A stretch of DNA of 32,000 bases. Origin: Pyrolobus fumarii 1A. GTDB lineage: Archaea; Thermoproteota; Thermoprotei_A; Sulfolobales; Pyrodictiaceae. The notes below the pieces were generated by a model. That model worked only from the letters and a program-made list of their open reading frames with translations, was not told the origin of the DNA and searched no databases. Location: positions 720,001-752,000 of the forward strand of contig NC_015931.1 in the NCBI RefSeq assembly GCF_000223395.1, written 5' to 3'. A program made the translations under genes and the position numbers. Position 1 is the first letter of the stretch; every line of letters begins with the position of its first letter. Positions 1,525 to 25,700 of the stretch are shown here, in pieces.

Positions 1525-4500
1525 TCATGATTGATGACGGCGTAGGTGTAACGCTACGGACGCGGCCAGAGTCGCGCCAGTTACGCCTATTATAGCTTGG
1601 AGCATCGACGTTTGTGTAGTCAATGTGTCCTCTACTTTACTGAGTCTGCCCTTCACGTTTGTCACCTCACTCTTCAAGTAGTTTACATCGGCTTCGATCT
1701 TTGACGTCTTGTCTATAACCTGGTCTATTTTGCCGGTGACTCGCTCCTCCATAGCCGATATACTACCCTTGACATCCGCCACAGCTTTGCCGATGCTATC
1801 CTCTACATACTTCTCAATGTGTGCTCGTGCCGTTTCTATCTCGCTTGCTAGCTTCTCTCCTACCTTCTTGACAGTCTCGCTGACACTGCTTATACTACTG
1901 GCGAGTTTCGCCTGTACCTCGTTCAGCGCGGTGATGATCGCATCCTGGCTCTCTGCAATCCTTCCAGATATCTCGTTTGCCACCGCCTCTAGTTTCTGCT
2001 CTACACGAGTCTCTATCTCGCTCAGCTTGTTGTTCAGCTTGTTTTCAAGCTCCGTTGCGACACTCGCAGCTAGCTTGTCAACAGTGACGCTTTGTATAGT
2101 GATGCCCTCGCCAGCCACATACTCGCCTTTATACACTGCCCTCACGGTAATGGTGTATGTCCCGGGTTCTACACCAGCGAGTTTGACTAGGTACGCTCCT
2201 TTCCCTAGACGCTCTACATGCACAGTAGGCTTGACCGGTCCTTCGACGCTCACGTCTAGTTCTGCATCAACCGGCTTATCATCTAGCGAGACTTGCACCG
2301 GGACAACTACAGTATCCTTAGCGTTGACGAGAACAGCGCCAATGCTTATCTTCAACGGCTTAGCTAGTCTAACTGCGATCCTCTCCGTGAATAGCTCCTG
2401 GATTAGCTCGAGATAGTTGTTTGCGAGGCTCGGGTAGTACATTACTATCGGCGACGGCAGCCTGGGCATCACGTATACTACATGGACGCCCGGCTTGTCA
2501 TAGCTCACACTGAACTCTATACTATCGTTCAACGAGGTTACAACCAGGTCGCCATCTATGTACACCTCGACGGGTGTCGCTGGCATAGTAAGTAGCTGGG
2601 CAGCCCATACCTTAACATTCAGCCTGCCATCCTCGTGGTGGGCATATAGGCCTAGAGCGGATGCCGTCATGAGCACATAGCCGGACTTGTGCACAACACC
2701 TACCAGCATGTTGCCGGTCAGCTTGCCTCCAAGTTTTACTTGCTCGCCTGGCTTCGCTATCGTAATTGGCTTCAGAGCCGTAAGCTGGATGCCGAAGTTA
2801 CGCTCGACAGCCACAGATGCAAGCTTGACACCGTCGCCCGCGACGACAAGGCTCTCTGTGTAACCAGGCTTGTAAATCGGCATCTTGCCCTCGACGTAAA
2901 GTGGCATGTATAGCACGGAGGCGTCAAATAACTTGAAGAACCTTGACAGCGTAACATTTGGCGCCGGCTTGGGCTCTGGTAGCGGCGCTGGCAGTGATAG
3001 TAGCGGGTCGCCCAGAAGCGTCAACTGGAGCACTGTTGTATGACCAAGGGTCACTGTCATACCACCCATACTGAGCTCCGGATATAGCTGCGATAGCGTA
3101 TCATTGAGGTAGAGGACTGTTCCCTTCCAGACAGCCTCGCCTAGCGTCCTAGCTCCCGAGGCCCACGCCTTAGCCAGGTAACCGTGGAGGAGTATAGCGC
3201 CACCTATGTTTGCACTCACCAGACCATTCTTTACGGCGAATATTGGGATCTTGAACCACTCGAAGGCGGACCTTGCGTGACCAACGTATGCTACTCCACC
3301 CCATCCAGCTGCGATAGCCCACCCTACACTCGGCGGGCTAAACCATGGCGACGGGACTAGGTCGAAGTCCCATGCGCCATTCATACAGGCAACGCTCGTT
3401 ACCACACCTATCTTTGTCCTCTTAGCGCTCTTCTCTAGCAGGTCGGTTGCGTTCACTAACTCCTCCCAAGTTATCATATTCACAGTCTCATTGTACACTA
3501 GGTCTGCCCATGAGTTGCCACTGCCATGCGCAATCACTGTTATCCATGCTGGCTGCTCCTTCTCGAGGAAGAGGCTACGGAAGTTCTCTCTAGTGTAGTT
3601 GCCGAGAACCCTAGTCATGAACTGAGGCTCTAGGTTTCTGAAGATGCCTAGCTTTACGCTGTATGTCGAGATGCCAGCCTCTCCTACGGGTGGCGCCATA
3701 GCGAACGGGTATCCTCCTATGACGAGTATGGTGGGGCTCCGCTGGTACTCCTCGTACAGCTTTACCTTCTCGAAGTACATCTGGATTAGGTATGGGTTGC
3801 TAAACGGCAGCCTCCCGACGTAGACATCTGGGTTGAAGTCGAGGTCGAGATCAGCATAGAGGTAGTCGGTTGGTATCCACCCGTTGTACGGGTCTACGAA
3901 GAAGTATTCTATGATGCTGAGGTAGTAGTAGCTCGGCGGTATTTCGGACGCGGAGCCCACTATGAGCACATGGGTTACTCCGTATGCCTGCTTCGCAAGC
4001 GCGATGAAGCCCCTTACCTGGGCAGCCAGAGTGAAATTATAGTATTGCATGATCTCTGGTGGCGGCGGGTACACTGGCATTAGTATGCCGGGTAGCGGTA
4101 TCTGCGGGAATAGAGGTGGCGCCTTTGTCACGTTCTCGAGGCTTGCAGCCACCACCTTAACGTTTGGATGGACGCTCTTCTCCAGCTCGGCTACCAGCTT
4201 CGCAATTTCCATGGTAGGGGCGATTACGAGCAGGACTGGCGAAGTACTACTCTCACTCTGCATCTCTACCTTCTCGGCGTACACCTTGACGCGCAGCATC
4301 GACGTGTATACTACCTTACCATCGTGATGTTGAACCGGGTATATGTAGATGTGTAGTACCTTCTTGCCGTTGAGTTTCAATGCGAAGTACGTGTAGTAGA
4401 CTCCTGGTGTCACTCGCTCATAGAAGCTCTCTACAGTGCCACGTACCAGAGGCTTGTCCGTATCGAGGCGCAGGGGAGAAGGCATAGGCTCGACGGGCTT

Positions 4501-4881
4501 AACCAGCTTAAGCTCTTGGATTGATAACGGCTCGACGACTACTACCGGGCGCGTGTCCAGTGGTAACTCGAACACCATGTGTATCGCTGGGAGTCTCGGG
4601 CCTCCAGGCAACCCGACATACACTACCTTGCCTGTGCTCGCGTGTAGCTCTAGCTTACTCCAGTTACCATCTTCATCGACATTGAGTCCTATGTAGATAG
4701 TCTTCTCGTACAGAAGGGTCGAGTCGCGCGGGACCACGGGGTTCGGCATTGCTACGCCAAGCGACGCTAGGGTCTCCGCGGGGCTCGAGGCTGCAGCTAA
4801 TATCGGCGTTACTGCGAGCAACACTACGAGCGTAATAATAGCAGCTAGTACTCTACGATGACCAGACATACTTTCATCCAT
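1525..4881 (-). CDS. Large cell-surface protein: signal/TM, peptidase C25 (gingipain)-like domain, beta-sandwich domains, long coiled-coil stalk, C-terminal TM anchor
   Basis: The ORF is open to 4941, but MDESMSGHRRVLAAIITLVVLLAV (ATG 4881, or 4869) gives a normal signal and avoids overlap with xpd. C25-like motifs are HVLIVGSASEIPPSYYY, DYLYADLDLDFNPDVYVGRLP, VIAHGSGNSW and SVACMNGAWD. The last ~190 aa are heptad/hendecad-patterned, followed by AIIGVTGATLAASVALHLRRHQS. Confidence 0.7.
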   Translation of the reverse strand: MDESMSGHRRVLAAIITLVVLLAVTPILAAASSPAETLASLGVAMPNPVVPRDSTLLYEKTIYIGLNVDEDGNWSKLELHASTGKVVYVGLPGGPRLPAIHMVFELPLDTRPVVVVEPLSIQELKLVKPVEPMPSPLRLDTDKPLVRGTVESFYERVTPGVYYTYFALKLNGKKVLHIYIYPVQHHDGKVVYTSMLRVKVYAEKVEMQSESSTSPVLLVIAPTMEIAKLVAELEKSVHPNVKVVAASLENVTKAPPLFPQIPLPGILMPVYPPPPEIMQYYNFTLAAQVRGFIALAKQAYGVTHVLIVGSASEIPPSYYYLSIIEYFFVDPYNGWIPTDYLYADLDLDFNPDVYVGRLPFSNPYLIQMYFEKVKLYEEYQRSPTILVIGGYPFAMAPPVGEAGISTYSVKLGIFRNLEPQFMTRVLGNYTRENFRSLFLEKEQPAWITVIAHGSGNSWADLVYNETVNMITWEELVNATDLLEKSAKRTKIGVVTSVACMNGAWDFDLVPSPWFSPPSVGWAIAAGWGGVAYVGHARSAFEWFKIPIFAVKNGLVSANIGGAILLHGYLAKAWASGARTLGEAVWKGTVLYLNDTLSQLYPELSMGGMTVTLGHTTVLQLTLLGDPLLSLPAPLPEPKPAPNVTLSRFFKLFDASVLYMPLYVEGKMPIYKPGYTESLVVAGDGVKLASVAVERNFGIQLTALKPITIAKPGEQVKLGGKLTGNMLVGVVHKSGYVLMTASALGLYAHHEDGRLNVKVWAAQLLTMPATPVEVYIDGDLVVTSLNDSIEFSVSYDKPGVHVVYVMPRLPSPIVMYYPSLANNYLELIQELFTERIAVRLAKPLKISIGAVLVNAKDTVVVPVQVSLDDKPVDAELDVSVEGPVKPTVHVERLGKGAYLVKLAGVEPGTYTITVRAVYKGEYVAGEGITIQSVTVDKLAASVATELENKLNNKLSEIETRVEQKLEAVANEISGRIAESQDAIITALNEVQAKLASSISSVSETVKKVGEKLASEIETARAHIEKYVEDSIGKAVADVKGSISAMEERVTGKIDQVIDKTSKIEADVNYLKSEVTNVKGRLSKVEDTLTTQTSMLQAIIGVTGATLAASVALHLRRHQS

Positions 4882-4900
4882 ATCGGAGGGGCTCTGTAAC

Positions 4901-4908
4901 TTGTATAA
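4901..4908 (-). promoter_or_regulatory. TATA-box candidate (TTATACAA on the minus strand) for the surface-protein gene, inside the 3' end of xpd
   Basis: The + strand ttgtataa at 4901-4908 lies 20-27 nt upstream of ATG 4881. This spacing fits a leaderless crenarchaeal transcript. Confidence 0.35.
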
Positions 4909-4913
4909 CAGCG

Positions 4914-6815
4914 TTACTGGATGTGCACACTCGTATCCCACAATCTCCTAACGGCCACGCGCAGAGCTTCACGTAACTCTTCTATGCTTTTGACAACCCT
5001 GTGGTATTTCAACCTGAGTAGCTCGCGGATACGAGGATTGAGGTACCTACGGTCCCCGAGAATGTATATTGCGCGATCCTCGTCGCTACGTATTGCTCTA
5101 CCCAGCGCCTGCCTGGCCTTCACGTAAGCCGTGACAGTGTATACGTAGTAACTGGCCTGAACCGGACCAACCTTCTCTGCAAGCTTCTCTATAACAGCCT
5201 TTGTGTAGTCATCGGGTTGCGGGTACGGGACGCCAGCCAGCATAACAGCGCTTATCAAACTCCTACCGTCACGGGTCAACTCTACTCCTTCCACGAGTTT
5301 CCCTCCAGCCACAGCATTCACTACCACCACTCTATGCTTCTCTAGGAGTTTCTCCACCTCCTTTCTCAAAGCATCAATGTTTGTATCCCTCTCTTCGCTA
5401 ACCATCACCACGTTACTAGAGAGCCTCGATACAATCTCTTTCATGAACTCGTAGCTCGGATAGACTACTAGTATGGCGCCCCTCAGTTCCTCCGCCAGCG
5501 TCTTCACGTACGAGGCGTACATATTGTACATCTCGCCGCTGCGTTCCCCGTAGCGTGACGTCAACTCGAGCGTCACAATCGTGTAGTACTTGCCGGATAT
5601 GTTGGATCCGTAGAGCAGCTCGGTGTCTATACTTACGCTACGCCTCTCGACGCAAAGAACGTCCCTGATGAACCTCTCGGGTGGCAGCGTCCCGCTCATC
5701 AGTATCACAGCCTTTGCGTTCATCAACGGTTCTCTGGTCACAACACAGTGGTCTACGGGCAGCGCTACTAGTTCTGCCTCGCCACTCTTACCCCTAGTGA
5801 CGAACACCTCTACACCCTCGAGAGACACTAGAGACGCGAAGACGGCAACCCTCGTCGCCGCGACACGTATGCGTGCTGCACTCGACGCACCCCCGCCAAG
5901 TGCTTCCCTGAACTTCTCGAGTCGAATCTCGGCAGCTAGGTCTGCTAATGCACCAGGATCCTCAACGGCACGGAGAACGATGGTCTTGTTTATGCGGCGT
6001 AGGCGGCCCTCGGGGGGCGGTTTCAGCTTAGCTAGTATACTGCGGAGTCTGGCAGCGACCGTCCTTCCCCACTCGGAGTCCGGTGCATACCTCTCAACCT
6101 CGGCGGCGAATGCCTCCACGTCGCGCCTCCGCAGCCTCTCCTCCAGTATCGAGCTAACGTCCATCAATGCATGCGCCTCATCCACGACGATGACATAGTC
6201 GCTGTACTCGTGCGGCTCGAACACAGACTCGAAGATGTCACGCTTGAAGACATAAGGGTACGTCGCTACTATGAATTTCACATCATCCACTAGCATCTTG
6301 AGCGCGAAGAATGGACATAGTCCCAGCTTCTCTAACTCCCGTACAGCGGCATACGGGCTAGGAGCGACCCTCCTAACCGCGTTGATTACAGGGCCTTTCA
6401 CATCACCCATCTGGACTAGGTTCTCGTAGTAGGGGCAGACGCCCTTCAAGCGGGCCAAGCGGCAATTCTCCCAGAACTCGTCGGGAGGCGGCGCCTCGCC
6501 ACGCTCCCCGCGCAGCAGAGGGCACATCCTCCTAGCACTATAGAGGAAGACGTAGTCGACACCGAAGCGGCTTAACTCGCGAAGCACCGGCTCTATCTCG
6601 TTACGCGTCCTCACAAGATACAACACGCGCTCTACCCCAGCCAGGAGCAGCCCGTATATCACTGCAGCCGTCTTGCCGAAGCCCGTCGGCGCCCTCAGCA
6701 GTAGAACCTCGCCCCTCTCAACAACCCTCTTTACAACCTCGGCTACCTCGCGCTGCCCTCGGCGGAACCTATCATACGGGAACCTCACGTTCTCTTGCTT
6801 GCCAGCGTTGCTCAC
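4914..6815 (-). CDS. xpd: XPD/Rad3-family 5'-3' DNA helicase with Fe-S cluster domain
   Basis: Walker A LLLRAPTGFGKTA and DEAH box VVDEAHAL. Four Cys lie between them (MCPLL, ENCRLA, VCPYY, LCPFF), as in the XPD 4Fe-4S domain. GTG start is preceded by GGGGAGGGG. Confidence 0.85.
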   Translation of the reverse strand: MSNAGKQENVRFPYDRFRRGQREVAEVVKRVVERGEVLLLRAPTGFGKTAAVIYGLLLAGVERVLYLVRTRNEIEPVLRELSRFGVDYVFLYSARRMCPLLRGERGEAPPPDEFWENCRLARLKGVCPYYENLVQMGDVKGPVINAVRRVAPSPYAAVRELEKLGLCPFFALKMLVDDVKFIVATYPYVFKRDIFESVFEPHEYSDYVIVVDEAHALMDVSSILEERLRRRDVEAFAAEVERYAPDSEWGRTVAARLRSILAKLKPPPEGRLRRINKTIVLRAVEDPGALADLAAEIRLEKFREALGGGASSAARIRVAATRVAVFASLVSLEGVEVFVTRGKSGEAELVALPVDHCVVTREPLMNAKAVILMSGTLPPERFIRDVLCVERRSVSIDTELLYGSNISGKYYTIVTLELTSRYGERSGEMYNMYASYVKTLAEELRGAILVVYPSYEFMKEIVSRLSSNVVMVSEERDTNIDALRKEVEKLLEKHRVVVVNAVAGGKLVEGVELTRDGRSLISAVMLAGVPYPQPDDYTKAVIEKLAEKVGPVQASYYVYTVTAYVKARQALGRAIRSDEDRAIYILGDRRYLNPRIRELLRLKYHRVVKSIEELREALRVAVRRLWDTSVHIQ

Positions 6816-11058: not shown

Positions 11059-11799
11059 TTATTTCAGTAATAGGCTCGCCCATGGATCCTCTGTTAGATC
11101 GGCGAGTGTCTTTGGTATACGGTTGACTAGTATCTTTGAGATCAGCGCTAGCGCTGTTCCTATGGTGCGGTAGGCTAGACCTCTAAACACTAACGAGTAT
11201 ATCAGCCAGATAGAGCCCACGGCTATGTGTGGGGCTAGCGCCTGAAGCCCCGGAGCTAGCGCATTCATTGATGCTAGGTACGGGCCTATGATTGCCACCG
11301 CCCATGCTGTTAACAACGTCGCTATGAACAGCAGGTGGTCTAGTATGTCTCTACCCGTGTATCCTCTTGGAAACAGGACTCGCTCTAGCCATTTACTGCG
11401 CAGTAGATAGGCGCCCACCACGGCAGCCGTGTAGGCTGGCGCCGCGAAGTAGAGCCCGGTTATTATGTGAGCGTGGTAGCCCATTCCTATGGCTAGCTGA
11501 GGCCAGCTTATGAAGAACTTCTCTAGCTCTGGCGAGATTATGGGCAACGCGTGTGGACGCAGGACGGTATTAGCAGCGTAGATCACTCCCCTAGTAGCAC
11601 CAACTATTATCGCCGTTAATGCTGCAGCGACTATGCCTAGGTATAACAGCCAGGTTACTAGCCACTCGCCAACATCCCTCCTCTTCAACAAGACCCTAAG
11701 GTTTAGCACTAAATCAAACAACGCCACTATCCTTGGCATTACGTGCTCGGAGACCCAACTATACTCGGAACGAGCCCGAGCCTCCACCCCACTCATCAC
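11059..11799 (-). CDS. Integral membrane protein (4-5 TM) with intramembrane His residues; possible b-type cytochrome or quinol-interacting partner of the 14-haem cytochrome
   Basis: Its start overlaps the stop of the upstream cytochrome gene (minus strand reads GTGATG at 11799-11794). TM-embedded His occur in GYHAHIITGLYF, LDHLLFIATLL and APHIAVGSIW. The functional call is inference. Confidence 0.6.
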   Translation of the reverse strand: MMSGVEARARSEYSWVSEHVMPRIVALFDLVLNLRVLLKRRDVGEWLVTWLLYLGIVAAALTAIIVGATRGVIYAANTVLRPHALPIISPELEKFFISWPQLAIGMGYHAHIITGLYFAAPAYTAAVVGAYLLRSKWLERVLFPRGYTGRDILDHLLFIATLLTAWAVAIIGPYLASMNALAPGLQALAPHIAVGSIWLIYSLVFRGLAYRTIGTALALISKILVNRIPKTLADLTEDPWASLLLK

Positions 11800-13076
11800 C
11801 TCTCACCCCCTTCATACACGTAAACAACTCGTGGAGTCTGGACGAGATGCCATTCATAGTGGCACTCGAAACAATTACCATCAGCCTTCTTGACCATCAT
11901 CTCGTGCATGATACCATAGCCGCTTACAAGTGCTGCGTGCATAGCTAGTCCACGCAGAGCGTCACTCTTGAGTCCACCATACTCGTCGTGGCACTTGCCG
12001 CATAGCTCTACATCCGCTGCCGATTTTACAAAGACAGTATGGTTGATTGGATTGGGCTCGTGGCATACGCTACAGTTGTAACTATAAGCCGCTGCATGTA
12101 CAAGGTGTAACCCCACGCTCACTGCTTCACGTATGGTGTCACCATGACAACCCTTACAACCGCGGAGAGCAACCAATGTAACATTCGGTGCCACGAAGCC
12201 TCTATGGCACTTACTACAATCCTGTAACTCCTCATACTTGTCGTGTAGCTTAGTCTTACGGGGGTCGTGGCACTCGACACAAATGTCGATACCAGGTTTC
12301 CAGCCGTGAGGCATGTCGGATAGATGGCAGTCGATGCACACTATTGTCCTATGCTCATACTCCTTACCGTAGTGCTTCTGGTGCCCATCGTTTAGAGGTT
12401 CTGTGTGGCAGGCGAGGCATGGGTTCACAGGTCTATATGTGAAGCCCAGCTTCTCCATCAGCATTCCTACAGCCATGTTGACGCCTCCATAGCTGGTGGC
12501 GTTTGGCGCTAGTTGCGCAGCAGGCACCACGGGGCTCTCAGAGTGACACGCGGTACAGGCTGCGCGTATGGTCTTGACCATATCACCGTGTATCTCAGCC
12601 GCATCGTGACACTTCAAACAGACCTTATTGCGTGGCTTATCCGTGTGGTGACCATGGTACGCATTAACATGACAATCCACGCATTGGACCGGGCGCGCGA
12701 GTCCCATCTTCGCTAGTTCCTCCTCACTAGCCTCTAGGTGTTTCCAGTGGAACTCTCCAGGAACACGGTGACACATTAGACACTCTCCATGCTCCTCAAC
12801 AAGGTGCTCTAACTTGACGTCGCGATAGAAGGGTATGCCTGGAAGTATCTCGCTCTTTACGCCGAAGCCGTGGCACCCGATACACCAGAACGGCCCGGTT
12901 ATGTTCTTAGGATCGAGAACCTTCGTGTCGTGGCAGCCTTCGCTGCAGAGCGACACGCTCTCAAAGTACCCTGGTATTGTAGCCTTCCAGTACCCCCACA
13001 TAGCCACTACAAACACAGCTATTATCAAGATTGTTTTCACAAGTTTCGTAGCAACGCTTGCCGTCATAGCATCCAC
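11796..13076 (-). CDS. Membrane-anchored multihaem cytochrome c (14 haem-binding motifs)
   Basis: N-terminal TM KTILIIAVFVVAMWGYW. There are 13 CxxCH motifs (CIGCH, CLMCH, CVDCH, CLKCH, CTACH, CLACH, CIDCH, CVECH, CSKCH, CKGCH, CSVCH, CGKCH, CFECH) and one CxxxCH (CSEGCH) in 426 aa. GGTG lies upstream of the ATG. Confidence 0.9.
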   Translation of the reverse strand: MDAMTASVATKLVKTILIIAVFVVAMWGYWKATIPGYFESVSLCSEGCHDTKVLDPKNITGPFWCIGCHGFGVKSEILPGIPFYRDVKLEHLVEEHGECLMCHRVPGEFHWKHLEASEEELAKMGLARPVQCVDCHVNAYHGHHTDKPRNKVCLKCHDAAEIHGDMVKTIRAACTACHSESPVVPAAQLAPNATSYGGVNMAVGMLMEKLGFTYRPVNPCLACHTEPLNDGHQKHYGKEYEHRTIVCIDCHLSDMPHGWKPGIDICVECHDPRKTKLHDKYEELQDCSKCHRGFVAPNVTLVALRGCKGCHGDTIREAVSVGLHLVHAAAYSYNCSVCHEPNPINHTVFVKSAADVELCGKCHDEYGGLKSDALRGLAMHAALVSGYGIMHEMMVKKADGNCFECHYEWHLVQTPRVVYVYEGGER

Positions 13077-13160: not shown

Positions 13161-14891
13161 TTAACTGCGTTCTTTGCGATTAATCGCAACACCCTCTAGA
13201 ATAGGGGCAGCGATAATACCCGCTATACCAACTGCATGAAGAAGGCCTGCGAGAGGCACGCGATACACGGTTACTACGGCATTCACATACTCTATGCTAG
13301 CGTTCTTCGAGAACGCGTAGTTCAACAGTAGTTTTGCAGTGCCCGTCAGGTCGCCTCTCTCACCCCAGCTGACAACCATGGCTGTATAGAGAGCGTAACG
13401 TAGCGCATCGTTACCTGTTAACTTCGGGTCAGAGAGCATGATGAGATAGTCCCTTGCTAGCTTACATGACTCGTTCTTGCTGAGCTCGATGCTGTCTAGC
13501 CACTCTAAGCTCCACAGGTCTAGACGCACATACGTTCCATTCGGCGTGATGCTCGACGGACAGGCTGCAACCGCCGGCGGGAGTACTAAGCTAGTCCCTA
13601 GACAGTCTATCTCTACTATCATTTGCGGTATGCTCGAAGGATGCTTAGAGGATATATTCAGTGCAGATACGTTGATACCCTTTGCCTCAGCCGCAAGACG
13701 CAACACGTGCGTAAACCGCGCGAATTCCAACGCAGCCTCCTTTCCAACGCTGCCCGCAAGCCAAGAGTAGACTATTGTCTGGTTTATCACGCCCCAGTAT
13801 AACGGATAGAAGTAGTGGACTATACTAGTGTCTGGTATCGGCGCTGGCCCGGTCTCGCCTAGCGAAACGGGCTTGACGCTACATTCTACGGCTATAGGCA
13901 CACGTGGGGCTGCCAGGAGGGCTAGGAGAGCTAGAACACCCACACAGATGCCGACCTTAGGCAGGATATCTGCTAGTCTAGTTCTCCTAGTGCTCATTAT
14001 GCTGGCTGCTACACCCGCCAGGCTTATACCCATGACCGTAACTAGCAGTGCACCAGCCCTGGCTACTAGAGGCACTGGAGCTACCGCTTCTATGGGCGTG
14101 GCTACACCCAAACCGATTAGCTGTAAGTCGCTGGGCGTTACACGCGCCTCCCTACGCACTAAAACTGGTAGTATAGTCCAAGCGCCCACAGCGACACCGA
14201 CAATGCCGGGCACCGCCTCGATGCCAGACCCGTAGACCCTCATGTACGGAGTGTAGCCGGCTAGAGCTAGTGAGGAGAGCACACCCATTGATGCAAGAGC
14301 GACCCCCCGACCGACATTGGCTCTGCTCGCGCAACCACCGACAACACATAGGGAGGCTACAACCAACATCAATGCTACTAGCGGCTCACCTACCAGCGGT
14401 ACATGGATGCGCGTGGTAAGAATCATCCACGTTGATAACACTCCTAGTATACAAGCAGATGCCACTCCCGAGGATAGGATCACAGTGTATTTAATCTTGT
14501 CGTTCCGGGCTACAAGACTACCAGCTGCAAAACCAGCAACTAGATACACGAGAGGCACTATGATGTCAAGAATGCCTGCGCCACGAGCATCATATTCTAC
14601 CAGCCCGCCTCCAAGGAGCCATGCTATGCCAGCGGAGATCGCCGCTATACTTCCTGGCATGTAGCTTCCACCTAAACGGGATGCTACGAGGATACCTAGC
14701 AGGAAGAGCGTTACGTGAAGCGGTGTCACTTGAGACAATGGACCAGCCACAAGCATAACGACGAGGATTGCCAATACTACGGGGCTTACAACTAATACTG
14801 CACTAGGCACTCTTCTTCCTCGTACAACGTGGTAGACGATAATCAACTCAAGGGTTATGGCGAGTAGCGCCAACGTGAAAGCGACATCCAT
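13161..14891 (-). CDS. Large polytopic membrane protein (~10 TM) with ~200-aa sequon-rich ectodomain and C-terminal TM; unknown function
   Basis: 576 aa. The N-terminal ~330 aa are almost entirely hydrophobic helices. The ectodomain carries NQT, NVS, NIS, NGT, NES and NAS sequons. The C-terminus is HAVGIAGIIAAPILEGVAINRKERS. No family recognised. Confidence 0.65.
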   Translation of the reverse strand: MDVAFTLALLAITLELIIVYHVVRGRRVPSAVLVVSPVVLAILVVMLVAGPLSQVTPLHVTLFLLGILVASRLGGSYMPGSIAAISAGIAWLLGGGLVEYDARGAGILDIIVPLVYLVAGFAAGSLVARNDKIKYTVILSSGVASACILGVLSTWMILTTRIHVPLVGEPLVALMLVVASLCVVGGCASRANVGRGVALASMGVLSSLALAGYTPYMRVYGSGIEAVPGIVGVAVGAWTILPVLVRREARVTPSDLQLIGLGVATPIEAVAPVPLVARAGALLVTVMGISLAGVAASIMSTRRTRLADILPKVGICVGVLALLALLAAPRVPIAVECSVKPVSLGETGPAPIPDTSIVHYFYPLYWGVINQTIVYSWLAGSVGKEAALEFARFTHVLRLAAEAKGINVSALNISSKHPSSIPQMIVEIDCLGTSLVLPPAVAACPSSITPNGTYVRLDLWSLEWLDSIELSKNESCKLARDYLIMLSDPKLTGNDALRYALYTAMVVSWGERGDLTGTAKLLLNYAFSKNASIEYVNAVVTVYRVPLAGLLHAVGIAGIIAAPILEGVAINRKERS

Positions 14892-15021: not shown

Positions 15022-17022
15022 TTAGGCTACCCTCCTGACCGCGAACGCGACCATACCGAATGCTAGCGCTAGTAGGGAGGCAAGAGCGTTGGTGCTGCCG
15101 CCCTCCTCGCCAACGTCGACCTTTAGCACCTTAACCGCGCCGTCGGTCTTGACTGGGACGTCGGTTACTAGCGGCTTCACAATCGCCTCCTTAGCCTCGC
15201 TACCCTCAATCTTCTTGACGTACTCCTTGACCTCTGGTAGCTGAGTTATTAGGGTGTTGACTGTCTTCTCAATCTCGCTAACCACCAGCTCCTTCTCGAC
15301 CTTGCTCATGGTGGCAGTCGCGCCAGTTGCGCCAGTCTCACCCTCGAACTGCTCCTTGAGCCATGGCAGTATGTGCTCGATCTCCTCGATTATCTCTGGG
15401 GCCTTCTTGCGGATCGCTGGCCTCTCGTATAGGTCGATTAGCCACTCCTCGATCTTCTCGGCGAAGTGCATTATGCCCTCCCACCAGACGAAGTCTGGGC
15501 CGAAGTGGGCTGCAGACATCTTGGTCGGCCTGTTAGCCATGGCACCGAGGTTCCTCACTATCCACTTGTCCATTGGCGTGAAGAGGCCCTTCTCCTGCAG
15601 CTTCGTTACTATGTCTAGCACGTACTTGTCTCTCATGTAGTCGACTAGTATGATCATCCAGTCGTAGGTCTTTAGCCAGCTGGCAGCATACCTCTTCGTG
15701 TGGCACTGGGCACACATGTCGATAGCGCGCTGCCTCCTAGCCTTCCAGTCGGGCTCCGGATAGACTAGCTTGATCTCCTCGCCGGTTGTCGGGCTCTTGA
15801 AGACTGCTGGCTGTGTGGCAGTGGCGCCTGGGAAGGCTGGGTCTGGTAGGCCTGGCAGCCTTGGTAGTGTGACTAGCCAGCGACCTAGCTTGAACTTGCT
15901 GATGATCGCAACATCGTGGCTGCTCGCGTACTTGACCTCACCTCTCTCGTTGTACACCGCAGCCATGTGGCAGGTTACACAGGTTGGCGCCCTGAAGTCG
16001 CGACCTGGCACCCAGTTGTTGACTGGCTTGTCCCAGTCCCAGTCCTCAGCCTCGCCCCAGAAGATAGCGCCGTGGACGCTCTTGCTCCACTGTTCGTCGT
16101 TCGGGTGGTCTGGGCCAGTGTGGCAGCGGCCACAGGCCTGGTAGGCGCCCTTCCTAGCGATCTTGACGCTGAAGCTGTGGTATGGGTGGCACGCCTCACA
16201 GCTGCCTAGGCTGCCGTCCGGGTTGACGCGACCAATGCCGTGGTTGGTGACGAATGCTGGGTCGAAGATCACCTTGTCTGGCGCCTTACCCTCCTTCATG
16301 TACTTCATTAGCTCGTCTAGGCTCGGGTAGGCGAATGCATCCTTGACGTCTAGCCTTACACCGTGGCAGCCTAGACAGCCCCTGATACCCCAGATGTATA
16401 GCGCCTTGGTAACCCTGTAGTTGTCGATGTCTAGGCCTAGCGGGTTGTAGGGTATGATCGCGTTGGTTGGATCGCCATAGAGTACCTCCTTACCGTACTC
16501 GTTGTCGCCGGTGAACTCGCGGACGATCTCTGGCACCCACTCGGTCACTATGTACTCCTTGGGTAGCTTGAAGTCCTCAGTCCAGCCGAACTGTGCCGCA
16601 ACGATGGTCCAGTATGCTGGGAACTCGGATAGCGCGTAAGCGTGTAGGCCTGCGAAGGCGTGGACGCTCTTCTGGAACTCCTCAGCAATTGATGGGTGGC
16701 AGCGGCCGCACTGCTTGGGAGTCACTACGAGCGTTATGTAGTAGCCATAGTGCTCGAAGACGTCTGGCCTGGTACCGGGCTGGGCTGCGTGACACTCGTA
16801 GCAGCCTACACCCACTATGCGGTGCTTGCTCTTATACCAGTCGTAGACGATGAATGGTGTTGCACGCAGGTGACACTCGACACAGTCCTGCGACTCTTTC
16901 GTCAGCTTCACGCCCGCCAGGTTGATGTAGTCGCCCCACTCGAAGGTCATTGCAGTAGCGATGCCGCTGGCTAGTAGTAGGGCAATGAATAGGGATAGGG
17001 TGGCTAGTGCTACGCGTCTCAT
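15022..17022 (-). CDS. Octahaem cytochrome c of the hydroxylamine oxidoreductase (HAO)-like family, with C-terminal linker/stalk and TM anchor
   Basis: Eight CxxCH motifs: CVECH, CYECH, CGRCH, CLGCH, CEACH, CGRCH, CVTCH, CAQCH. HAO-like context includes CVECH...VYDWYKSKH and AAHFGPDFVWWEG. The ORF is open to GTG 17067, but ATG 17022 gives MRRVALATLSLFIALLLASGIATA. C-terminus is ALASLLALAFGMVAFAVRRVA. Confidence 0.85.
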   Translation of the reverse strand: MRRVALATLSLFIALLLASGIATAMTFEWGDYINLAGVKLTKESQDCVECHLRATPFIVYDWYKSKHRIVGVGCYECHAAQPGTRPDVFEHYGYYITLVVTPKQCGRCHPSIAEEFQKSVHAFAGLHAYALSEFPAYWTIVAAQFGWTEDFKLPKEYIVTEWVPEIVREFTGDNEYGKEVLYGDPTNAIIPYNPLGLDIDNYRVTKALYIWGIRGCLGCHGVRLDVKDAFAYPSLDELMKYMKEGKAPDKVIFDPAFVTNHGIGRVNPDGSLGSCEACHPYHSFSVKIARKGAYQACGRCHTGPDHPNDEQWSKSVHGAIFWGEAEDWDWDKPVNNWVPGRDFRAPTCVTCHMAAVYNERGEVKYASSHDVAIISKFKLGRWLVTLPRLPGLPDPAFPGATATQPAVFKSPTTGEEIKLVYPEPDWKARRQRAIDMCAQCHTKRYAASWLKTYDWMIILVDYMRDKYVLDIVTKLQEKGLFTPMDKWIVRNLGAMANRPTKMSAAHFGPDFVWWEGIMHFAEKIEEWLIDLYERPAIRKKAPEIIEEIEHILPWLKEQFEGETGATGATATMSKVEKELVVSEIEKTVNTLITQLPEVKEYVKKIEGSEAKEAIVKPLVTDVPVKTDGAVKVLKVDVGEEGGSTNALASLLALAFGMVAFAVRRVA

Positions 17023-17077
17023 ACCCCAGACACCCGCCGTCACTTTTCCATGTCTTTGATTGTTCACAATATGCGAC

Positions 17078-17085
17078 TATTTAAA
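17078..17085 (-). promoter_or_regulatory. TATA box (TTTAAATA on the minus strand) for the octahaem cytochrome gene
   Basis: The + strand tatttaaa at 17078-17085 matches the archaeal consensus. Its position implies a TSS near 17055, downstream of GTG 17067, which favours ATG 17022 as the start. Confidence 0.45.
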
Positions 17086-17285: not shown

Positions 17286-18044
17286 TCACTTTTTCCTACG
17301 AGAATAGATATAGTCGGCTACCGTGTAGATGGCTAGCGCTGCACCAACAGCCAATGCGACGTTGAGCAGCATTGATGTTAACATTGTATTATTATCTCTA
17401 CCTTCCTCCCTAACGACAACTATGTTTACTGTGGGTGCCGTGTCGGACGTCGTGTATATGTTGATGTCACCTCCTGGTATCTTCTGGCCAGTCTCGTTGT
17501 CGAAAAGCGCTAGCCGTATCTTGAAGAAGTACTGAGCCTCGTGTACACCAGGAGTCGCGTTGAAGTATCGCTCATGGGCTATTATCGATATTTGGCGTGT
17601 AACCGTGTTCTCGTACACAGGCCTTATAGCAGCATGTAAGGCCCCGGATCCTATTACTGCTCCGCCCTCGCCCCACTCCCACATAGACTCTACTGGTTTG
17701 AAGAGTGTTGGGTCTATCCGATATCCTGGGTCTACCACTTGTATTGTGATTATTCCGTCCCAGGGGCCAGTCCAGTTGACATGTACAGTAACGTTGACAA
17801 CTCCTAGTATGTTGGGAGGCCGCAGGTATAGAGTGTCAGGATAGTATATGTCTGCGTATACCTCGATTGTAGTGTTATCCGTCAATCTCTGGTATACTGG
17901 GCCCATGCGCGCATGTAGTATGTGGATTGTTATTTCGCGGCTGTTAGCGAAGCTCGTCATGTACACCAGGGGTATCAGTATCAACAGGATTGCCGAGACC
18001 GCTACTATAGGATGGACGCTGCGCCTAGCCTCCACGGCTATCAC
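17286..18044 (-). CDS. Bitopic surface protein (N-terminal TM, beta-rich sequon-rich ectodomain, C-terminal TM and basic tail); unknown function
   Basis: 252 aa. N-terminal helix is IVAVSAILLILIPLVYM and the C-terminus is LLNVALAVGAALAIYTVADYIYSRRKK. Sequons NTT, NVT, NWT, NAT, NET and NNT are present. The GTGA start/stop overlaps the upstream gene at 18041-18044. Confidence 0.6.
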   Translation of the reverse strand: MIAVEARRSVHPIVAVSAILLILIPLVYMTSFANSREITIHILHARMGPVYQRLTDNTTIEVYADIYYPDTLYLRPPNILGVVNVTVHVNWTGPWDGIITIQVVDPGYRIDPTLFKPVESMWEWGEGGAVIGSGALHAAIRPVYENTVTRQISIIAHERYFNATPGVHEAQYFFKIRLALFDNETGQKIPGGDINIYTTSDTAPTVNIVVVREEGRDNNTMLTSMLLNVALAVGAALAIYTVADYIYSRRKK

Positions 18045-19018
18045 CTCGCAATGTTCTCAAGGTAGTCCATCACGGTGTATATGTCGCCACGCTGGTATAC
18101 CTTGTTGTTGAATACTAGAACAGTGTCAATGTCGCTCCACCTTAGACCGATATAGGCGAATAGTTTGTCAATGCCATTCTTGACGCTGTTGCTCGTCTCG
18201 AAGAACTCTAGCGTAGGGTCTGCGATGACGAATGTCTTTAGAGGCTTGACATATGCTATGCTCACACAATGGTTGTATCCTTCTTTACCAAAGAAGCACA
18301 TGACCCAGGCGTCTCCAAAGCTACCGAGATACTCTAGATAGAGGCTTGTTAGGAGGATAGCCTTGTCCTCGCAGTCGCCAGCCTTGCGTATCAAAGTCTC
18401 AAGCGGTGTTTGTATATAGTTATCGGTCTTCTTTATCTTGAATGCATATACATATTTCTTTCCATTCATGTCTACGTACTTCACGTCACTTATTACTACA
18501 AATGGGTGGTCGGGGCTCGTCTTCACCTCCCTGACCGTGTAGTTATAGAGCATCTCCATGTGTTTCAGCGCCTTTTTGGGGTTGAATAGGGGGACTCCAA
18601 CGACCTCCATTACTATATCTGCAACCCTACCTGGGGTCACGTACTGTCTAACATCCTGCGTGTAGTATGCCCGGGGATATGTTAGCTTGAACAACTCTGT
18701 TATACTCGCATTGAGGTTCTCTAGTATCCTCGTGACGACGAGCGCCTCTTTGAGAGTCTCATTAGCTGTTGTTACCAGCTCTGCGAGCCTCCTTAATCGC
18801 TCGCGCAGCGTCTTTATCTGAAGTAGCAGGGCTGTATTGTTATCCTCTAGTTTTGCGGCACGTTTAGCGAGTAGCGTAAACGTCTCGTTAAGGCTGCTGT
18901 AAGCTTCGAGGAGTTTGTTGTACTTGTTCACTTGTTGAGTATAGAGTGTTGCCCAAACAGCGTTGCTCGCGGCCAGCGCAACTAGCAGGAGGAGCACTAC
19001 ACCGCGCTTGTCTACCAT
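18041..19018 (-). CDS. Membrane-anchored transglutaminase-like (Cys-His-Asp papain-fold) protein with coiled-coil N-terminal region
   Basis: Signal/TM is VVLLLLVALAASNAVWA. A heptad-rich segment follows (LLEAYSSLNETFTLLAKRAAKLEDNNTALLLQIKTLRERLRRLAEL). The TGase-core pattern is AGDCEDKAILLTSLYL ... YNHCVSIAYV ... IADPT. Confidence 0.65.
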   Translation of the reverse strand: MVDKRGVVLLLLVALAASNAVWATLYTQQVNKYNKLLEAYSSLNETFTLLAKRAAKLEDNNTALLLQIKTLRERLRRLAELVTTANETLKEALVVTRILENLNASITELFKLTYPRAYYTQDVRQYVTPGRVADIVMEVVGVPLFNPKKALKHMEMLYNYTVREVKTSPDHPFVVISDVKYVDMNGKKYVYAFKIKKTDNYIQTPLETLIRKAGDCEDKAILLTSLYLEYLGSFGDAWVMCFFGKEGYNHCVSIAYVKPLKTFVIADPTLEFFETSNSVKNGIDKLFAYIGLRWSDIDTVLVFNNKVYQRGDIYTVMDYLENIAR

Positions 19019-19106: not shown

Positions 19107-19823
19107 TTACTGCTCTGACTTCTTTCTGCGGAAGCGCGCGTAAACCATTGCATGGTCCTTGTCGAATGGCTCTAGATGGACCATATCTACGATCTCGAAA
19201 CCTCTCTGTTTCAGTACCTCGATCTCGCGCTTGAACACCTCGCTGGGCTCCTTGGTGACGTCGATGCTTCTTGCCTTGATTGCTAGTAGTAGCCAGCCGC
19301 CATCACGCAGGAAGAAGTCGGCATTGTCAGCCACTAGGGCTGCCTGCTCCGGCTGTGCAACGTCCGCATAGATGCCGTCCACCATCTCCACTATGTAGCG
19401 ATACTCGTGTGGCTTGCGCGCATCGCCTAGAATCGGGTAGAGGTTTGGCCTAGACTCTGCAACAACGACCAACTCTCTCATGACACGGGGGGCAAACTCT
19501 ACTGCAAACACCTTACCCTTCTCGCCGACAATGTCGGACACGTGGCTGGGTGTTGTACCAGTCGCAGCACCAAGGTATAGGACGCGGTCACCCTCCTTCA
19601 CCGGCAGCTCCTCGAGGCCCTTTAGGAGTGCTGCCGCGAGCTTGCTACGGTACGGGTTCCACTCGCGATACTCAGCATCCTTCCACTTGAAGAGCCTCTC
19701 GCCATAGACCCTCTGGCCCGGCACGAGGTTCTTGGTGGCGAGCCTGGTAGAGCCGTCCTCGAGCTCGACAATATACACGCCCTTGTATTTCTCGTGCTCG
19801 TAGATGTTTACTACCTCGGACAT
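19107..19823 (-). CDS. flpA: Fibrillarin, C/D box sRNP 2'-O-methyltransferase
   Basis: Fibrillarin-typical sequences [40 protein letters not shown] and DVAQPEQA. 238 aa. Confidence 0.9.
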
Positions 19824-23980: not shown

Positions 23981-25657
23981 TCACCTTCTCGCGGCTAAAG
24001 CGGCCACATAGAACCCTACTAGCAACCCCCCTATTGCGGCAGCCGGTGCAACACCCGCTGTTATCGCTAACGCTAACCCAGCTATACCCGCAGTTAAGGA
24101 CACGAGCACACCGAGCACTAGCGTTTTCCACATGCCCCGCGCGATCGTCGACGCTATTGCGCCTGGCAATAATATCATTACATGCTCCACAACGAAGCCC
24201 ACCGTGCGTAACAGCAGAACGGATGCCGCCGCTAACACCGAGATAAACAACACGTCGTAGAGCTTCACGCGTAGACCCGCGAGTCGCACACTACTCGGGT
24301 CTAACCCTATACACACCTGCTCTCGGTAAGTGAGTATAACCACCGACCCGACCAGTGCGGCTACTACTAGCGCCACCAGCACATCCTCCATGCCTACTAG
24401 TAGCGGGTCGCCCAGGATGTACGCCCAAAGCCCAGCCTGCAACGGGAATCTCGTAAGCACGTAGTACATCACAGCTACGGAGGCTGACGCGGTAGCAGAG
24501 ACGTAGACGGAAGCAGCTACATCAGGATCTATACCCTTCTCCACTAGCACGCTAAAAGCATGAACCATCCCAACAGCTATCAACGCTGCCCAGAGGTACT
24601 CTGGGCCACCAACTACCATGGAGATTGGTATCGCTAACGTAGCTGCGAGTAAACTAGAGTGCGGGAGCCCCGCCGCAAGGAAGTACAATCTTCGCGCCGC
24701 GACTACAACGCTCAGCACACCAAAGGCTAGCGAAGCACCGCCCACAACCAGGAACCACTTTACAACCTCGGGGACCAGGTTGGCACTCGCTGCCACCCAT
24801 CCGCGTTTCTGAATATCCCGAATCTGATTGACAATAAAGGCTAGCTTTTCGGGTATAGTACCCAACTCTGATGGCGATGGGACGAGGATAACTGGTGCAC
24901 CACGACTCTCAGCCAACCGCACAAGCTCTTGAGAAGCAGGCGATTTTACAGGCTTGGTTACGACGGCTACACCACCATCCTCTAACACTTCAACACTCTT
25001 GTCGTACAGCACGGGTTGTGTGGGCATACCCGGCTCGGGCACGAGAACTATCCTCACACGCACACCTAGCCATTCAACTGCATACTGTACCACAGGTGTA
25101 TCAGCCACAGCGTCCACATCGAGCCTAGGAGCGTTCTCTAGAAGCGCCTCGACACTAGAGATTATCATCGCAGCTTTCTCTCGATACACGCTTGCGCACT
25201 CCGGTCTTAGCCTCTCAAGCTCCGTAGCCAATACCTTGACAAACGCGATGTAGTTACGAGGGTCATAGATGGGCATATGGAGGTTTGGCCTGCCAGTCAC
25301 CGGGTTCTCGACGAGTCTTACCCCAGGTACACGCCATATAACAACGAGCTTTGCACTGATATCCCCCTTCTCTACAAGCTCTTCGATACGCTTTTCGAAT
25401 GGCGCGTGCCCGGTGGATATGATCAGGTCCGCACTTTCGAGCTTGACTATGTCATTAGGCGACAATTGATACTCGTGGGGGTCCACAGAGGGCGGGACTA
25501 TACTATCAACCCTATCGCCTTTGCACAACAGTTGCTCAACTTCCTGAGCTAGGCTAGGGAAAGTAACTATGATGTATACGCCTCTATCAGCGGCCGCATG
25601 CTGCGACAAGGACAGTACGAGCAATAACGTTATCAACAGCGTCACTGTTACTCTCAT
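23981..25657 (-). CDS. Fusion protein: ZnuA/TroA-type metal solute-binding domain plus ABC-3 (ZnuB/TroC-type) permease domain
   Basis: Signal peptide MRVTVTLLITLLLVLSLSQHAAA (ATG 25657 preceded by GGTGAGG; the ORF is open to GTG 25678). SBP motifs are VDPHEYQLSPNDIVKLESADLIISTG and NLHMPIYDPRNY. About 8 TM follow, with the ABC-3-like sequence LDPSSVRLAGLRVKLYDVLF. Confidence 0.8.
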   Translation of the reverse strand: MRVTVTLLITLLLVLSLSQHAAADRGVYIIVTFPSLAQEVEQLLCKGDRVDSIVPPSVDPHEYQLSPNDIVKLESADLIISTGHAPFEKRIEELVEKGDISAKLVVIWRVPGVRLVENPVTGRPNLHMPIYDPRNYIAFVKVLATELERLRPECASVYREKAAMIISSVEALLENAPRLDVDAVADTPVVQYAVEWLGVRVRIVLVPEPGMPTQPVLYDKSVEVLEDGGVAVVTKPVKSPASQELVRLAESRGAPVILVPSPSELGTIPEKLAFIVNQIRDIQKRGWVAASANLVPEVVKWFLVVGGASLAFGVLSVVVAARRLYFLAAGLPHSSLLAATLAIPISMVVGGPEYLWAALIAVGMVHAFSVLVEKGIDPDVAASVYVSATASASVAVMYYVLTRFPLQAGLWAYILGDPLLVGMEDVLVALVVAALVGSVVILTYREQVCIGLDPSSVRLAGLRVKLYDVLFISVLAAASVLLLRTVGFVVEHVMILLPGAIASTIARGMWKTLVLGVLVSLTAGIAGLALAITAGVAPAAAIGGLLVGFYVAALAARR

Positions 25658-25700
25658 GCTTACCTCACCCTTGTGCACATCCCTCTTTACCTCCTTATCA

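Follow-up and report, generated by a model that had tools for sequence, protein, structure and literature searches.

An HAO-family octahaem cytochrome c of Pyrolobus fumarii with reductive-type active-site features and a conserved, probably membrane-anchoring C-terminal extension

What does an octahaem enzyme of the hydroxylamine oxidoreductase (HAO) family do in Pyrolobus fumarii 1A, and how is it kept at the cell surface? The question is raised by the gene Pyrfu_0788, which lies on the minus strand of a 32,000-nucleotide stretch of the P. fumarii 1A genome (the window; contig NC_015931.1, positions 720,001 to 752,000), in whose coordinates all positions below are given. An earlier note, made from the letters of the window, had read the open reading frame (ORF) at 15022-17067 as an HAO-family octahaem cytochrome fused to a C-terminal stalk and a membrane anchor. 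We find that Pyrfu_0788 is an exported HAO-family octahaem cytochrome c, that its active site points to the reductive type and not to the oxidising P460 kind, and that it carries a C-terminal extension, conserved among its Pyrodictiaceae orthologues, whose hydrophobic helix is a likely membrane anchor. As to its role, we tentatively put first that of a tethered reductive terminal reductase for which, in P. fumarii, an N-oxide is a slightly likelier acceptor than Fe(III).

Pyrfu_0788 belongs to the HAO family

Pyrfu_0788 contains exactly eight CxxCH motifs, as had been counted in the earlier note, at residues 62, 89, 120, 231, 290, 312, 363 and 452 (residues are numbered in the 681-residue frame that starts at GTG 17067), and all 16 of its cysteines lie inside these motifs. 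The composition of the protein predicts 0.011 such motifs, and in 20,000 shuffles the maximum was two, reached once; the motif count is therefore not due to chance. The other strings quoted in the note (CVECH..VYDWYKSKH, FGPDFVWWEG, EGETGATGATAT and ALASLLALAFGMVAFAVRRVA) are present in the ORF as well. The eight motifs are listed below; each is invariant in the family alignment of 91 homologues, which comprises 14 Pyrodictiaceae sequences, including Pyrfu_0788, and 77 bacterial ones.

16870..16884, minus strand: haem 1, CVECH
16789..16803, minus strand: haem 2, CYECH
16696..16710, minus strand: haem 3, CGRCH
16363..16377, minus strand: haem 4, CLGCH, where HAO-family enzymes have their five-coordinate catalytic haem
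16186..16200, minus strand: haem 5, CEACH
16120..16134, minus strand: haem 6, CGRCH
15967..15981, minus strand: haem 7, CVTCH
15700..15714, minus strand: haem 8, CAQCH
15346..16950, minus strand: octahaem core of HAO fold, residues 40-574 (AlphaFold2, Foldseek and profile)

Membership in the HAO family is established by the Pfam match, by sequence and profile matches to PDB chains, by the AlphaFold2 model and by the Foldseek search with this model, in agreement with the assignment proposed earlier. The protein matches PF13447 (Multi-haem_cyto) at E 3.8e-21, with 76 bits where the gathering cut-off is 21.9. In a phmmer search of PDB sequences, all matches with E <= 2.6e-11 are HAO-family chains, the others being two unrelated chains at E 0.1. 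The best match is 4qo5, the octahaem cytochrome IhOCC of Ignicoccus hospitalis (E 9.7e-48), followed by 6h5l, 6t5e, 4n4j, 1fgj and 6hif, and a profile built from the 91 homologues recovers 4qo5 with E 2.2e-129 and a full-length alignment. Thus, placement in a multihaem family other than HAO, which the note had named as the outcome that would speak against its assignment, did not occur, all significant matches being HAO-family. The eight haem motifs align one-to-one with those of 4qo5 and of 1fgj, the HAO of N. europaea (NeHAO). By homology to the CTMCH motif of NeHAO and to IhOCC, haem 4 is the probable catalytic haem of Pyrfu_0788.

The AlphaFold2 model computed on the 91-homologue alignment has a mean pLDDT of 81.4 and a pTM of 0.73, with the core mostly above 85, and shows the three long C-terminal helices of the core that serve oligomerisation in the HAO fold (458-492, 498-521 and 524-547). 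When this model was compared with the PDB by Foldseek, the top 11 matches were all HAO-family structures (E 5.9e-22 to 1.6e-07) and the next was NrfA at E 0.16. The best match is again 4qo5 (E 5.9e-22, TM-score 0.67 on target length), then 6h5l, 1fgj, 4n4j and 6hif. Since the model contains no haems, the TM-scores of the HAO-family matches reach only moderate values (0.45-0.67 on target length).

The active site points to a reductive enzyme

The earlier note held that the direction of catalysis could not be read from the sequence. This was too pessimistic: the alignment to HAO and octahaem reductases that it had recommended shows the cross-linking tyrosine replaced by Trp529, which argues for the reductive type, and the distal Asp-His pair retained.

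15481..15486, minus strand: Trp528-Trp529, with Trp529 aligned to the cross-linking Tyr467 of N. europaea HAO
16105..16110, minus strand: Asp320-His321, aligned to the distal pair Asp267-His268 of N. europaea HAO (1fgj alignment)

In NeHAO, Tyr467 is bonded to the catalytic haem of an adjacent subunit, a cross-link that makes the enzyme an oxidase, whereas Pyrfu_0788 has a tryptophan at this site: the profile-to-PDB alignment pairs WTY467TEG of NeHAO with VWW529EG. The Trp529 column of the family alignment holds 72 Trp and 16 Phe residues and no Tyr. The nearest downstream tyrosine, in DLYERP, is ~19 residues from Trp529, and none is found upstream in the displayed segment. On the basis of these alignments, no P460-type cross-link is expected in Pyrfu_0788. 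Such a cross-link is known to be absent from IhOCC, and the HAO-family members that lack the tyrosine (IhOCC and HAOr of Kuenenia stuttgartiensis) reduce nitrite and do not oxidise hydroxylamine (PMC9250108). Since Trp529 replaces the tyrosine and Tyr-less members reduce nitrite, the sequence points to an enzyme of the reductive type, similar to IhOCC, epsilon-Hao or HAOr, and not to one of the oxidising P460 kind.

The Asp-His pair is found in 14/14 Pyrodictiaceae sequences, where it is kept in orthologues down to 46% identity; in the whole alignment, the Asp320 column is Asp in 90 of the 91 homologues and the His321 column is His in 70. This pair is common to reductive members too and does not discriminate the direction of catalysis. 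Outside the haem motifs, exactly seven conserved His/Met positions could serve as distal haem ligands (H82, H106, H136, H297, H332, H384 and H521), the last of which is Met in 70 of the other sequences. These candidates would suffice for seven six-coordinate haems and would leave one haem open.

Comparison with the solved structures is consistent with this assignment. IhOCC (Igni_0955; PDB 4QO5; Parey et al. 2016), the best solved relative, is likewise archaeal, has eight haems in the HAO arrangement and no P460 cross-link, and is described as a nitrite reductase (PMC9250108). It differs from Pyrfu_0788 by its low sequence identity (~24% in the structural alignment), by an Asp-Val in place of Asp-His and by the lack of a C-terminal extension, its chain ending ~15 residues past the aligned core. 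No transmembrane (TM) segment is predicted for IhOCC (PMC4429474), and it is termed membrane-associated in the title of the cited paper. Among the P. fumarii paralogues, the one that truly corresponds to IhOCC is Pyrfu_1339 (PMC4429474). The second-best solved relative, K. stuttgartiensis HAOr Kustc0458 (PDB 6H5L), is also without the Tyr cross-link, has WW at the aligned site, and is reported to reduce nitrite to NO with no oxidation of hydroxylamine (PMC9250108). Unlike Pyrfu_0788, it is bacterial (anammox), works with a separate partner, Kustc0457, shares ~17% identity and shows no C-terminal anchor in its 517-residue chain. NeHAO (PDB 1FGJ/4FAS/6M0P) has the same fold (Foldseek E 2.5e-09), the same order of haem motifs and the Asp-His pair, at ~16% identity.

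Translation start and export

The gene itself is real, yet the extent given to it in the earlier note was probably too long at the 5' end. The longest ORF, 15022..17067 on the minus strand, has 681 codons and starts with GTG; its product has no exact match on record. By contrast, the 666-residue product that starts at ATG 17022 is an exact match to Pyrfu_0788 of P. fumarii 1A (AEM38657.1 / WP_014026334.1 / G0EDH2).

15022..17022, minus strand: Pyrfu_0788 coding sequence, 666 residues plus stop codon, probable true start ATG 17022
17078..17085, minus strand: TATA-like box TTTAAATA upstream of Pyrfu_0788, putative promoter element
16951..17022, minus strand: N-terminal Sec-type signal peptide MRRVALATLSLFIALLLASGIATA, from hydropathy, with an AxA motif before the predicted mature start MTFEWG

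Residue M16, encoded by ATG 17022, coincides with the alignment position of the N-terminal Met of homologues. The TTTAAATA box lies 63 nt from ATG 17022 and 18 nt from GTG 17067, a spacing that would fit the former and be too short for the latter if the box acts as a promoter. The exact RefSeq match, the N-termini of homologues and the position of the TATA-like box lead us to prefer ATG 17022 as the probable true start, and the 15 extra residues of the GTG-started ORF (17023-17067) are probably untranslated. In the orthologues, an AxA-type motif precedes a conserved [AE]T[FY]xWG, and the signal peptide of Pyrfu_0788 is predicted to be cleaved at ..ATA|MTFEWG.

A conserved C-terminal extension

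Beyond the octahaem core, the C-terminus of Pyrfu_0788 consists of EGETGATGATAT, ~70 mostly charged residues and NALASLLALAFGMVAFAV-RRVA.

15301..15345, minus strand: Gly/Thr/Ala-rich linker EGETGATGATATMSK, residues 575-589, pLDDT <50
15202..15300, minus strand: variable spacer with two predicted charged helices, residues 590-609 and 611-622, pLDDT ~70-79
15091..15201, minus strand: unmodelled segment, residues 623-659, pLDDT <50, containing the KPLVTDVPVKTDGAVKV motif
15025..15090, minus strand: hydrophobic helix NALASLLALAFGMVAFAV (residues 660-677) and basic tail RRVA, probable membrane anchor

The linker and hydrophobic helix described in the earlier note are thus in place, followed by a basic tail, with the note's '~90 aa' corrected to 85 residues between the core end (~574) and the hydrophobic helix (660-677). 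A hydrophobic C-terminal stretch followed by a charged tail occurs in 13/13 other Pyrodictiaceae orthologues (46-82% identity) and a hydrophobic C-terminal tail in only 1/77 bacterial homologues of the alignment (P0110). The parts of the extension are conserved to different degrees. Closer orthologues have an EG-x-x-[ST]TG-type linker, which a deeper clade has lost; the helical spacer varies in length and sequence and is hardly alignable; and the sole motif conserved across the stalks of the 14 orthologues, P-[LT]-V-x2-V-x-V-x3-G-x-V (KPLVTDVPVKTDGAVKV), lies just before the hydrophobic segment. A phmmer search with residues 575-681 against 1.84 billion representatives found no match outside the protein's own cluster, so that the idea of a stalk module reused on other proteins was abandoned. 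Because the helical part is variable and such matches are confined to its own cluster, the extension appears to be a rapidly evolving spacer rather than a domain.

The hydrophobic core of the terminal helix comprises 17 Ala/Leu-rich residues and is moderately hydrophobic (Kyte-Doolittle mean 2.39, summed Hessa dG -1.32), similar to the h-region of the protein's own signal peptide; AlphaFold2 extends the terminal helix over residues 660-680. That this helix is a membrane anchor is likely but not proven. Attachment of c-type haems takes place outside the cytoplasm (Ccm system). The N-terminal signal together with the c-type haems rules out a tail-anchored protein of the Get3/TRC40 type, and the wording 'tail anchor' used earlier was loose: given a cleavable Sec-type signal and a C-terminal anchor, Pyrfu_0788 would be a type I bitopic protein.

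Known archaeosortase/exosortase sorting signals were considered and rejected for this C-terminus. No NCBIfam CTERM model (PGF-CTERM, PEF-CTERM, VPXXXP-CTERM and others) matches the full protein, and among five orthologue tails the only match is to MYXO-CTERM (E 0.11, with 12.9 of the 20 bits required). In the deeper clade (P0008-P0013, e.g. L006:8001-9950), the hydrophobic stretch is ~17 residues long with a conserved IPAAL/VPAAL, and the tails are acidic (EGRREEEQ, ESESEEEEE), not basic. To judge by these residues, the deeper-clade tail has more in common with a sorting signal than with a stop-transfer anchor, with no match to a known CTERM model. Several closer orthologues carry [VI]PxxxP in the tail.

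The statement in the earlier note that bacterial HAO-like enzymes are soluble does not hold generally. The deposited NeHAO sequence (1fgj_A, 546 residues) ends, like Pyrfu_0788, in a linker, a hydrophobic stretch and a basic tail, with a linker of ~25 residues compared with ~85 in Pyrfu_0788; the bacterial homologue P0110 has its tail; and ~10 bacterial HAO-like homologues are fused to membrane domains. The last, 590-738 residues long (P0036, P0046, P0051, P0053, P0063, P0069, P0086, P0089, P0094 and P0120; the named examples are Thermodesulfobacteriota), are fused to CopD (PF05425) domains, some with Cyt-b5 (PF00173) in addition, so that an HAO-type enzyme is here attached to the membrane by other means. 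Within the window, an N-terminal signal combined with a C-terminal hydrophobic segment and a basic tail is also seen in the ORFs 1525-4941, 13161-14891, 17286-18044 and 23981-25678, of which 1525..4941 encodes a 1138-residue protein with a C25-peptidase domain. This combination appears to be a general surface-retention design in P. fumarii. In view of the NeHAO tail, the CopD-fused homologues and the similar ORFs in the window, the fusion of an HAO enzyme to a C-terminal hydrophobic tail is not unusual.

Genomic neighbourhood

Pyrfu_0788 is part of a six-gene block kept in five lineages: P. delaneyi (two strains), two further Pyrodictiaceae assemblies and one deeper clade. The genes encode, in order, a transglutaminase-like protein of ~325 residues, a protein of ~250 residues, the octahaem cytochrome, a polytopic protein of ~580-630 residues, a 13-14-haem cytochrome and a membrane protein of ~246 residues. 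The same order is found in L004/L005, L008 and L009, and in L006 with an insertion. The neighbours in P. fumarii are the following.

18041..19018, minus strand: 325-residue membrane-anchored protein with coiled coil and transglutaminase-like region (AGDCED motif), conserved upstream neighbour
17286..18044, minus strand: 252-residue protein with a hydrophobic segment at each end, conserved upstream neighbour, 42% identical to its L006 counterpart
13161..14891, minus strand: Pyrfu_0787, 576-residue polytopic membrane protein (hydropathy), conserved downstream neighbour
11796..13076, minus strand: Pyrfu_0786, multihaem cytochrome c with 13 CxxCH and one CxxxCH (CSEGCH) motif and an N-terminal TM anchor
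11059..11799, minus strand: Pyrfu_0785, 246-residue helical membrane protein with five invariant His, conserved neighbour

The two upstream genes, which overlap by 4 nt, are syntenic with the cytochrome gene in 5/5 lineages examined. The 325-residue protein scores 19.7 bits with Pfam DUF553 (cut-off 20.5) and has a weak LapG match, both being below threshold; L004 and L006 have a homologue of it at the corresponding place in the block, and the L006 gene carries PF04473. Pyrfu_0787, with conserved synteny in L004, L006, L008 and L009, has no Pfam or NCBIfam match; by hydropathy, ~10 TM segments at the N-terminus are followed by an extracytoplasmic domain and, at the C-terminus, by a further hydrophobic segment. 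Pyrfu_0786, whose synteny is also conserved, has a weak HmcA-like match in NCBIfam and no match in a PDB sequence search (13/14-haem protein); it was placed in cluster 23 and modelled on 2e84 in the survey of Kletzin et al. 2015 (PMC4429474).

Pyrfu_0785 is limited to Pyrodictiaceae (14 homologues) and has five invariant histidines (H83, H109, H111, H155 and H191). We considered it as a NarI/HmcE-like dihaem cytochrome b that would oxidise quinol, and found no Pfam match even at E 10 and no PDB sequence match. Its confident, all-helical AlphaFold2 model gave a best Foldseek match of E 0.76, with NarI at E 2.8 and TM-score 0.15, which leaves the cytochrome b reading unsupported; a cofactor-binding role, perhaps with haem b, is tempting but equally unsupported.

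In the deeper clade (L006:10089-14950), the octahaem and polytopic genes lie ~5 kb apart, with small ORFs between them that include PIN, PaREP1 and an MFS transporter; this is suggestive of a mobile insertion that left the cluster genes on either side in place. A gene for a 995-residue cytochrome c assembly protein (PF01578) is located a few kb from the cluster in P. delaneyi (L004:2763-5750) and in the deeper clade (L006:1-2545); it is absent from the P. fumarii window, where a fibrillarin gene (19107-19823) adjoins the block. The genomic context of the nearest non-archaeal homologue, the bacterial P0016, contains no related cluster.

Proposed role and alternatives

We propose that Pyrfu_0788 would be secreted through Sec, with the signal peptide probably cleaved after ..ATA, and that its eight haems would be attached outside the cytoplasm. 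The enzyme would probably form a trimer, by analogy with other family members, and would be held at the outer face of the cytoplasmic membrane by the flexible spacer of ~85 residues and the hydrophobic helix, with the RRVA end in the cytoplasm. There it could act as the outward-facing terminal reductase of the six-gene block. Electrons might pass from the membrane through Pyrfu_0785/0787 to Pyrfu_0786 (13-14 haems) and along the haem chain of Pyrfu_0788 to haem 4, presumably open, and its pocket of Asp320 and His321. The likeliest acceptors in P. fumarii would be nitrite, hydroxylamine or NO, reduced towards ammonium.

An N-oxide acceptor is favoured by three considerations: P. fumarii is reported to ammonify nitrate (PMC12303954, which cites Blochl et al. 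1997), the closest characterised relatives reduce nitrite, and the catalytic pocket is conserved. A number of observations weigh against this reading or parts of it. The P. delaneyi orthologue, Pyrde_0784, was 60-fold more abundant on ferrihydrite than on nitrate, in what is the sole experiment on this orthologue group (PMC8105010). P. delaneyi strain Hulk, which encodes a protein identical to Pyrde_0784, does not respire nitrite. Besides Pyrfu_0788, the P. fumarii genome encodes at least two HAO-family paralogues, Pyrfu_1334 and Pyrfu_1339, as well as the NrfA-like tetrahaem Pyrfu_1102 (PMC4429474), any of which could be the nitrite reductase. The alignment of NeHAO around Tyr467 is a weak HMMER domain, with that of IhOCC over the Trp529 columns being strong. 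As a candidate subunit for electron entry, Pyrfu_0785 has no cytochrome-b-like fold match in Foldseek. Concerning the tether, the hydrophobic helix of the earlier note stands, with the RRVA tail behind it, whereas the C-terminal TM call is not borne out by published predictions, an outcome that the note itself had named as speaking against it: in Table S1 of Kletzin et al. 2015, two TM predictors (TMHMM-type) report only an N-terminal segment (5-27 / 4-26) for Pyrfu_0788 (PMC4429474). That publication is inconsistent on this point, since its summary table implies a C-terminal TM helix for Pyrfu_0788 and the per-protein predictor columns give the N-terminal segment alone. Finally, spacers of 84-130 nt between the genes and a T-run after Pyrfu_0788, together with its own TATA-like box in the ~240 nt that separate it from the upstream gene pair, suggest separate transcription from the neighbours. 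This is in line with the absence of co-regulation of the neighbours with Pyrde_0784 in P. delaneyi (PMC8105010). Because of the spacers, the T-run and this absence of co-regulation, a physical complex of the neighbouring products is unproven.

Part of this evidence would be explained if the same protein, with the same topology, served in extracellular electron transfer, passing electrons to mineral or chelated Fe(III) at the cell surface and perhaps reducing N-oxides as well, as promiscuous surface terminal reductases do. OcwA of Thermincola is such a promiscuous surface terminal reductase. We regard this function as a strong rival, if a somewhat less probable one than the first. Pyrde_0784, 73% identical and located in the same six-gene block, was uniquely identified in a haem-stained band of ferrihydrite-grown P. 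delaneyi, and besides its abundance on ferrihydrite it has a place in the iron-respiration chain ('Mcc') proposed by the authors (PMC8105010); strain Hulk has the gene and no nitrite respiration; and the spacer, with its ~85 residues, would hold the haem domain at a distance from the membrane, nearer to the S-layer. On the other hand, the change in abundance is a correlation and not a function, the P. delaneyi neighbours were not co-induced (PMC8105010), and the link of P. fumarii to iron consists of one secondary statement that groups it with iron-metabolising archaea. Moreover, an enzyme-type Asp-His pocket is strictly conserved in the lineage, and a pure electron conduit would not need one. 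Far less probable is an oxidising enzyme of HAO or hydrazine dehydrogenase (HDH) type, acting on hydroxylamine or hydrazine. Such an enzyme would share its fold and Asp-His pair with Pyrfu_0788, as NeHAO, KsHOX and HDH do, and there is a weak NCBIfam match to HDH; that match (NF052343, an equivalog model) reaches 61.8 bits where 900 are required, Pyrfu_0788 lacks the cross-link Tyr, its closest relative by structure is IhOCC, a reductive enzyme, and P. fumarii is a hydrogen-oxidising nitrate ammonifier. We consider an oxidising HAO effectively excluded.

Orthogonal to the question of substrate is that of whether the tether is permanent. The C-terminal hydrophobic segment could be a removable sorting or retention signal, cut off for instance by the co-conserved membrane-bound transglutaminase-like (LapG/DUF553-like) cysteine protease, with release of a soluble enzyme into the pseudo-periplasm; this is unlikely, and a processed, releasable tether is for us a minor possibility. 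It would account for the marginal hydrophobicity of the segment and the lack of a TM call in published predictions, for the ~17-residue stretch with an acidic tail in the deeper clade, which is unusual for a stop-transfer anchor, and for the [VI]PxxxP of several tails. It would also agree with the synteny of the transglutaminase-like gene and its AGDCED motif in 5/5 lineages, with the finding of Ignicoccus homologues in both soluble and membrane fractions, and with NeHAO, which encodes a similar tail and of which the solved structures model ~499-504 of 546 residues. Speaking for a lasting anchor, no known C-terminal sorting model matches the five tails or the full protein, the protease assignment consists of sub-threshold matches, the upstream gene pair is ~240 nt from the cytochrome gene across a gap with its own TATA-like box, and Pyrde_0784 is described as membrane-bound (PMC8105010). 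A still bolder proposal, and a distinctly improbable one, is that Pyrfu_0788 is the missing nitrite/hydroxylamine-to-ammonium reductase of P. fumarii ammonification at up to 113 C, one case of a stalked reductase serving both N-oxides and Fe(III) across the Pyrodictiaceae, with tether length and release controlled by the upstream transglutaminase-like protease and its 252-residue partner. The tethered reductase, with an N-oxide as the somewhat likelier acceptor, remains the reading we put first.

Relation to published work and significance

Pyrfu_0788, its membership in the HAO family, its gene cluster and the C-terminal anchors of archaeal cytochromes c are already known from the literature (PMC4429474, PMC8105010), contrary to the novelty implied in the earlier note: the exact protein had been filed as HAO-like. 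The archaeal 'Cluster 04 HAO' of Kletzin et al. 2015 explicitly includes Pyrfu_0788, together with Igni_0955, Igni_1359, Pyrfu_1334, Pyrfu_1339, Hbut_1389, Ferp_0649/0711/1198, Mbur_0467, ANME2D_03302 and GACE_0430/1826; the table for this cluster gives eight haems, models on 1fgj_A at 100% confidence and a C-terminal TM helix for most members. Coiled-coil C-terminal extensions are noted there for Pyrfu_1334 and Hbut_1389, and C-terminal anchors are discussed, with no comment on the stalk of Pyrfu_0788 itself (PMC4429474).

The last four genes of the block were described as the 'Mcc' cluster Pyrde_0784-0787, with Pyrfu_0785-0788 named as its homologue (Kashyap & Holden 2021, PMC8105010). Pyrde_0784, published there as a membrane-bound octahaem cytochrome, is an orthologue of Pyrfu_0788 over 97% of its length, with eight CxxCH motifs, a signal peptide, a C-terminal spacer and a hydrophobic tail in the same six-gene neighbourhood; it differs in its stalk, which is shorter and largely unalignable to that of Pyrfu_0788. 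The word 'hydroxylamine' has 0 occurrences in that article, and the relationship to HAO is not mentioned. The article gives '11- and 6-heme' for the P. fumarii cluster, and the sequences contain 13+1 (Pyrfu_0786) and 8 (Pyrfu_0788) motifs; judged by motif counts, the published numbers look wrong.

To this the present analysis adds the missing cross-link Tyr as a mark of the reductive type, the finding that the Asp-His pocket is kept, a revised start codon, a block of six rather than four genes, the analogy with the NeHAO tail and the anatomy of the spacer. If its function were pinned down, Pyrfu_0788 would provide the terminal reductase of a respiratory chain operating above 100 C, be it that of nitrate ammonification in Pyrolobus or of Fe(III) reduction in Pyrodictium. 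An answer would likewise make clear by what means multihaem enzymes of the soluble type are retained on the surface of archaea that have no closed periplasm.

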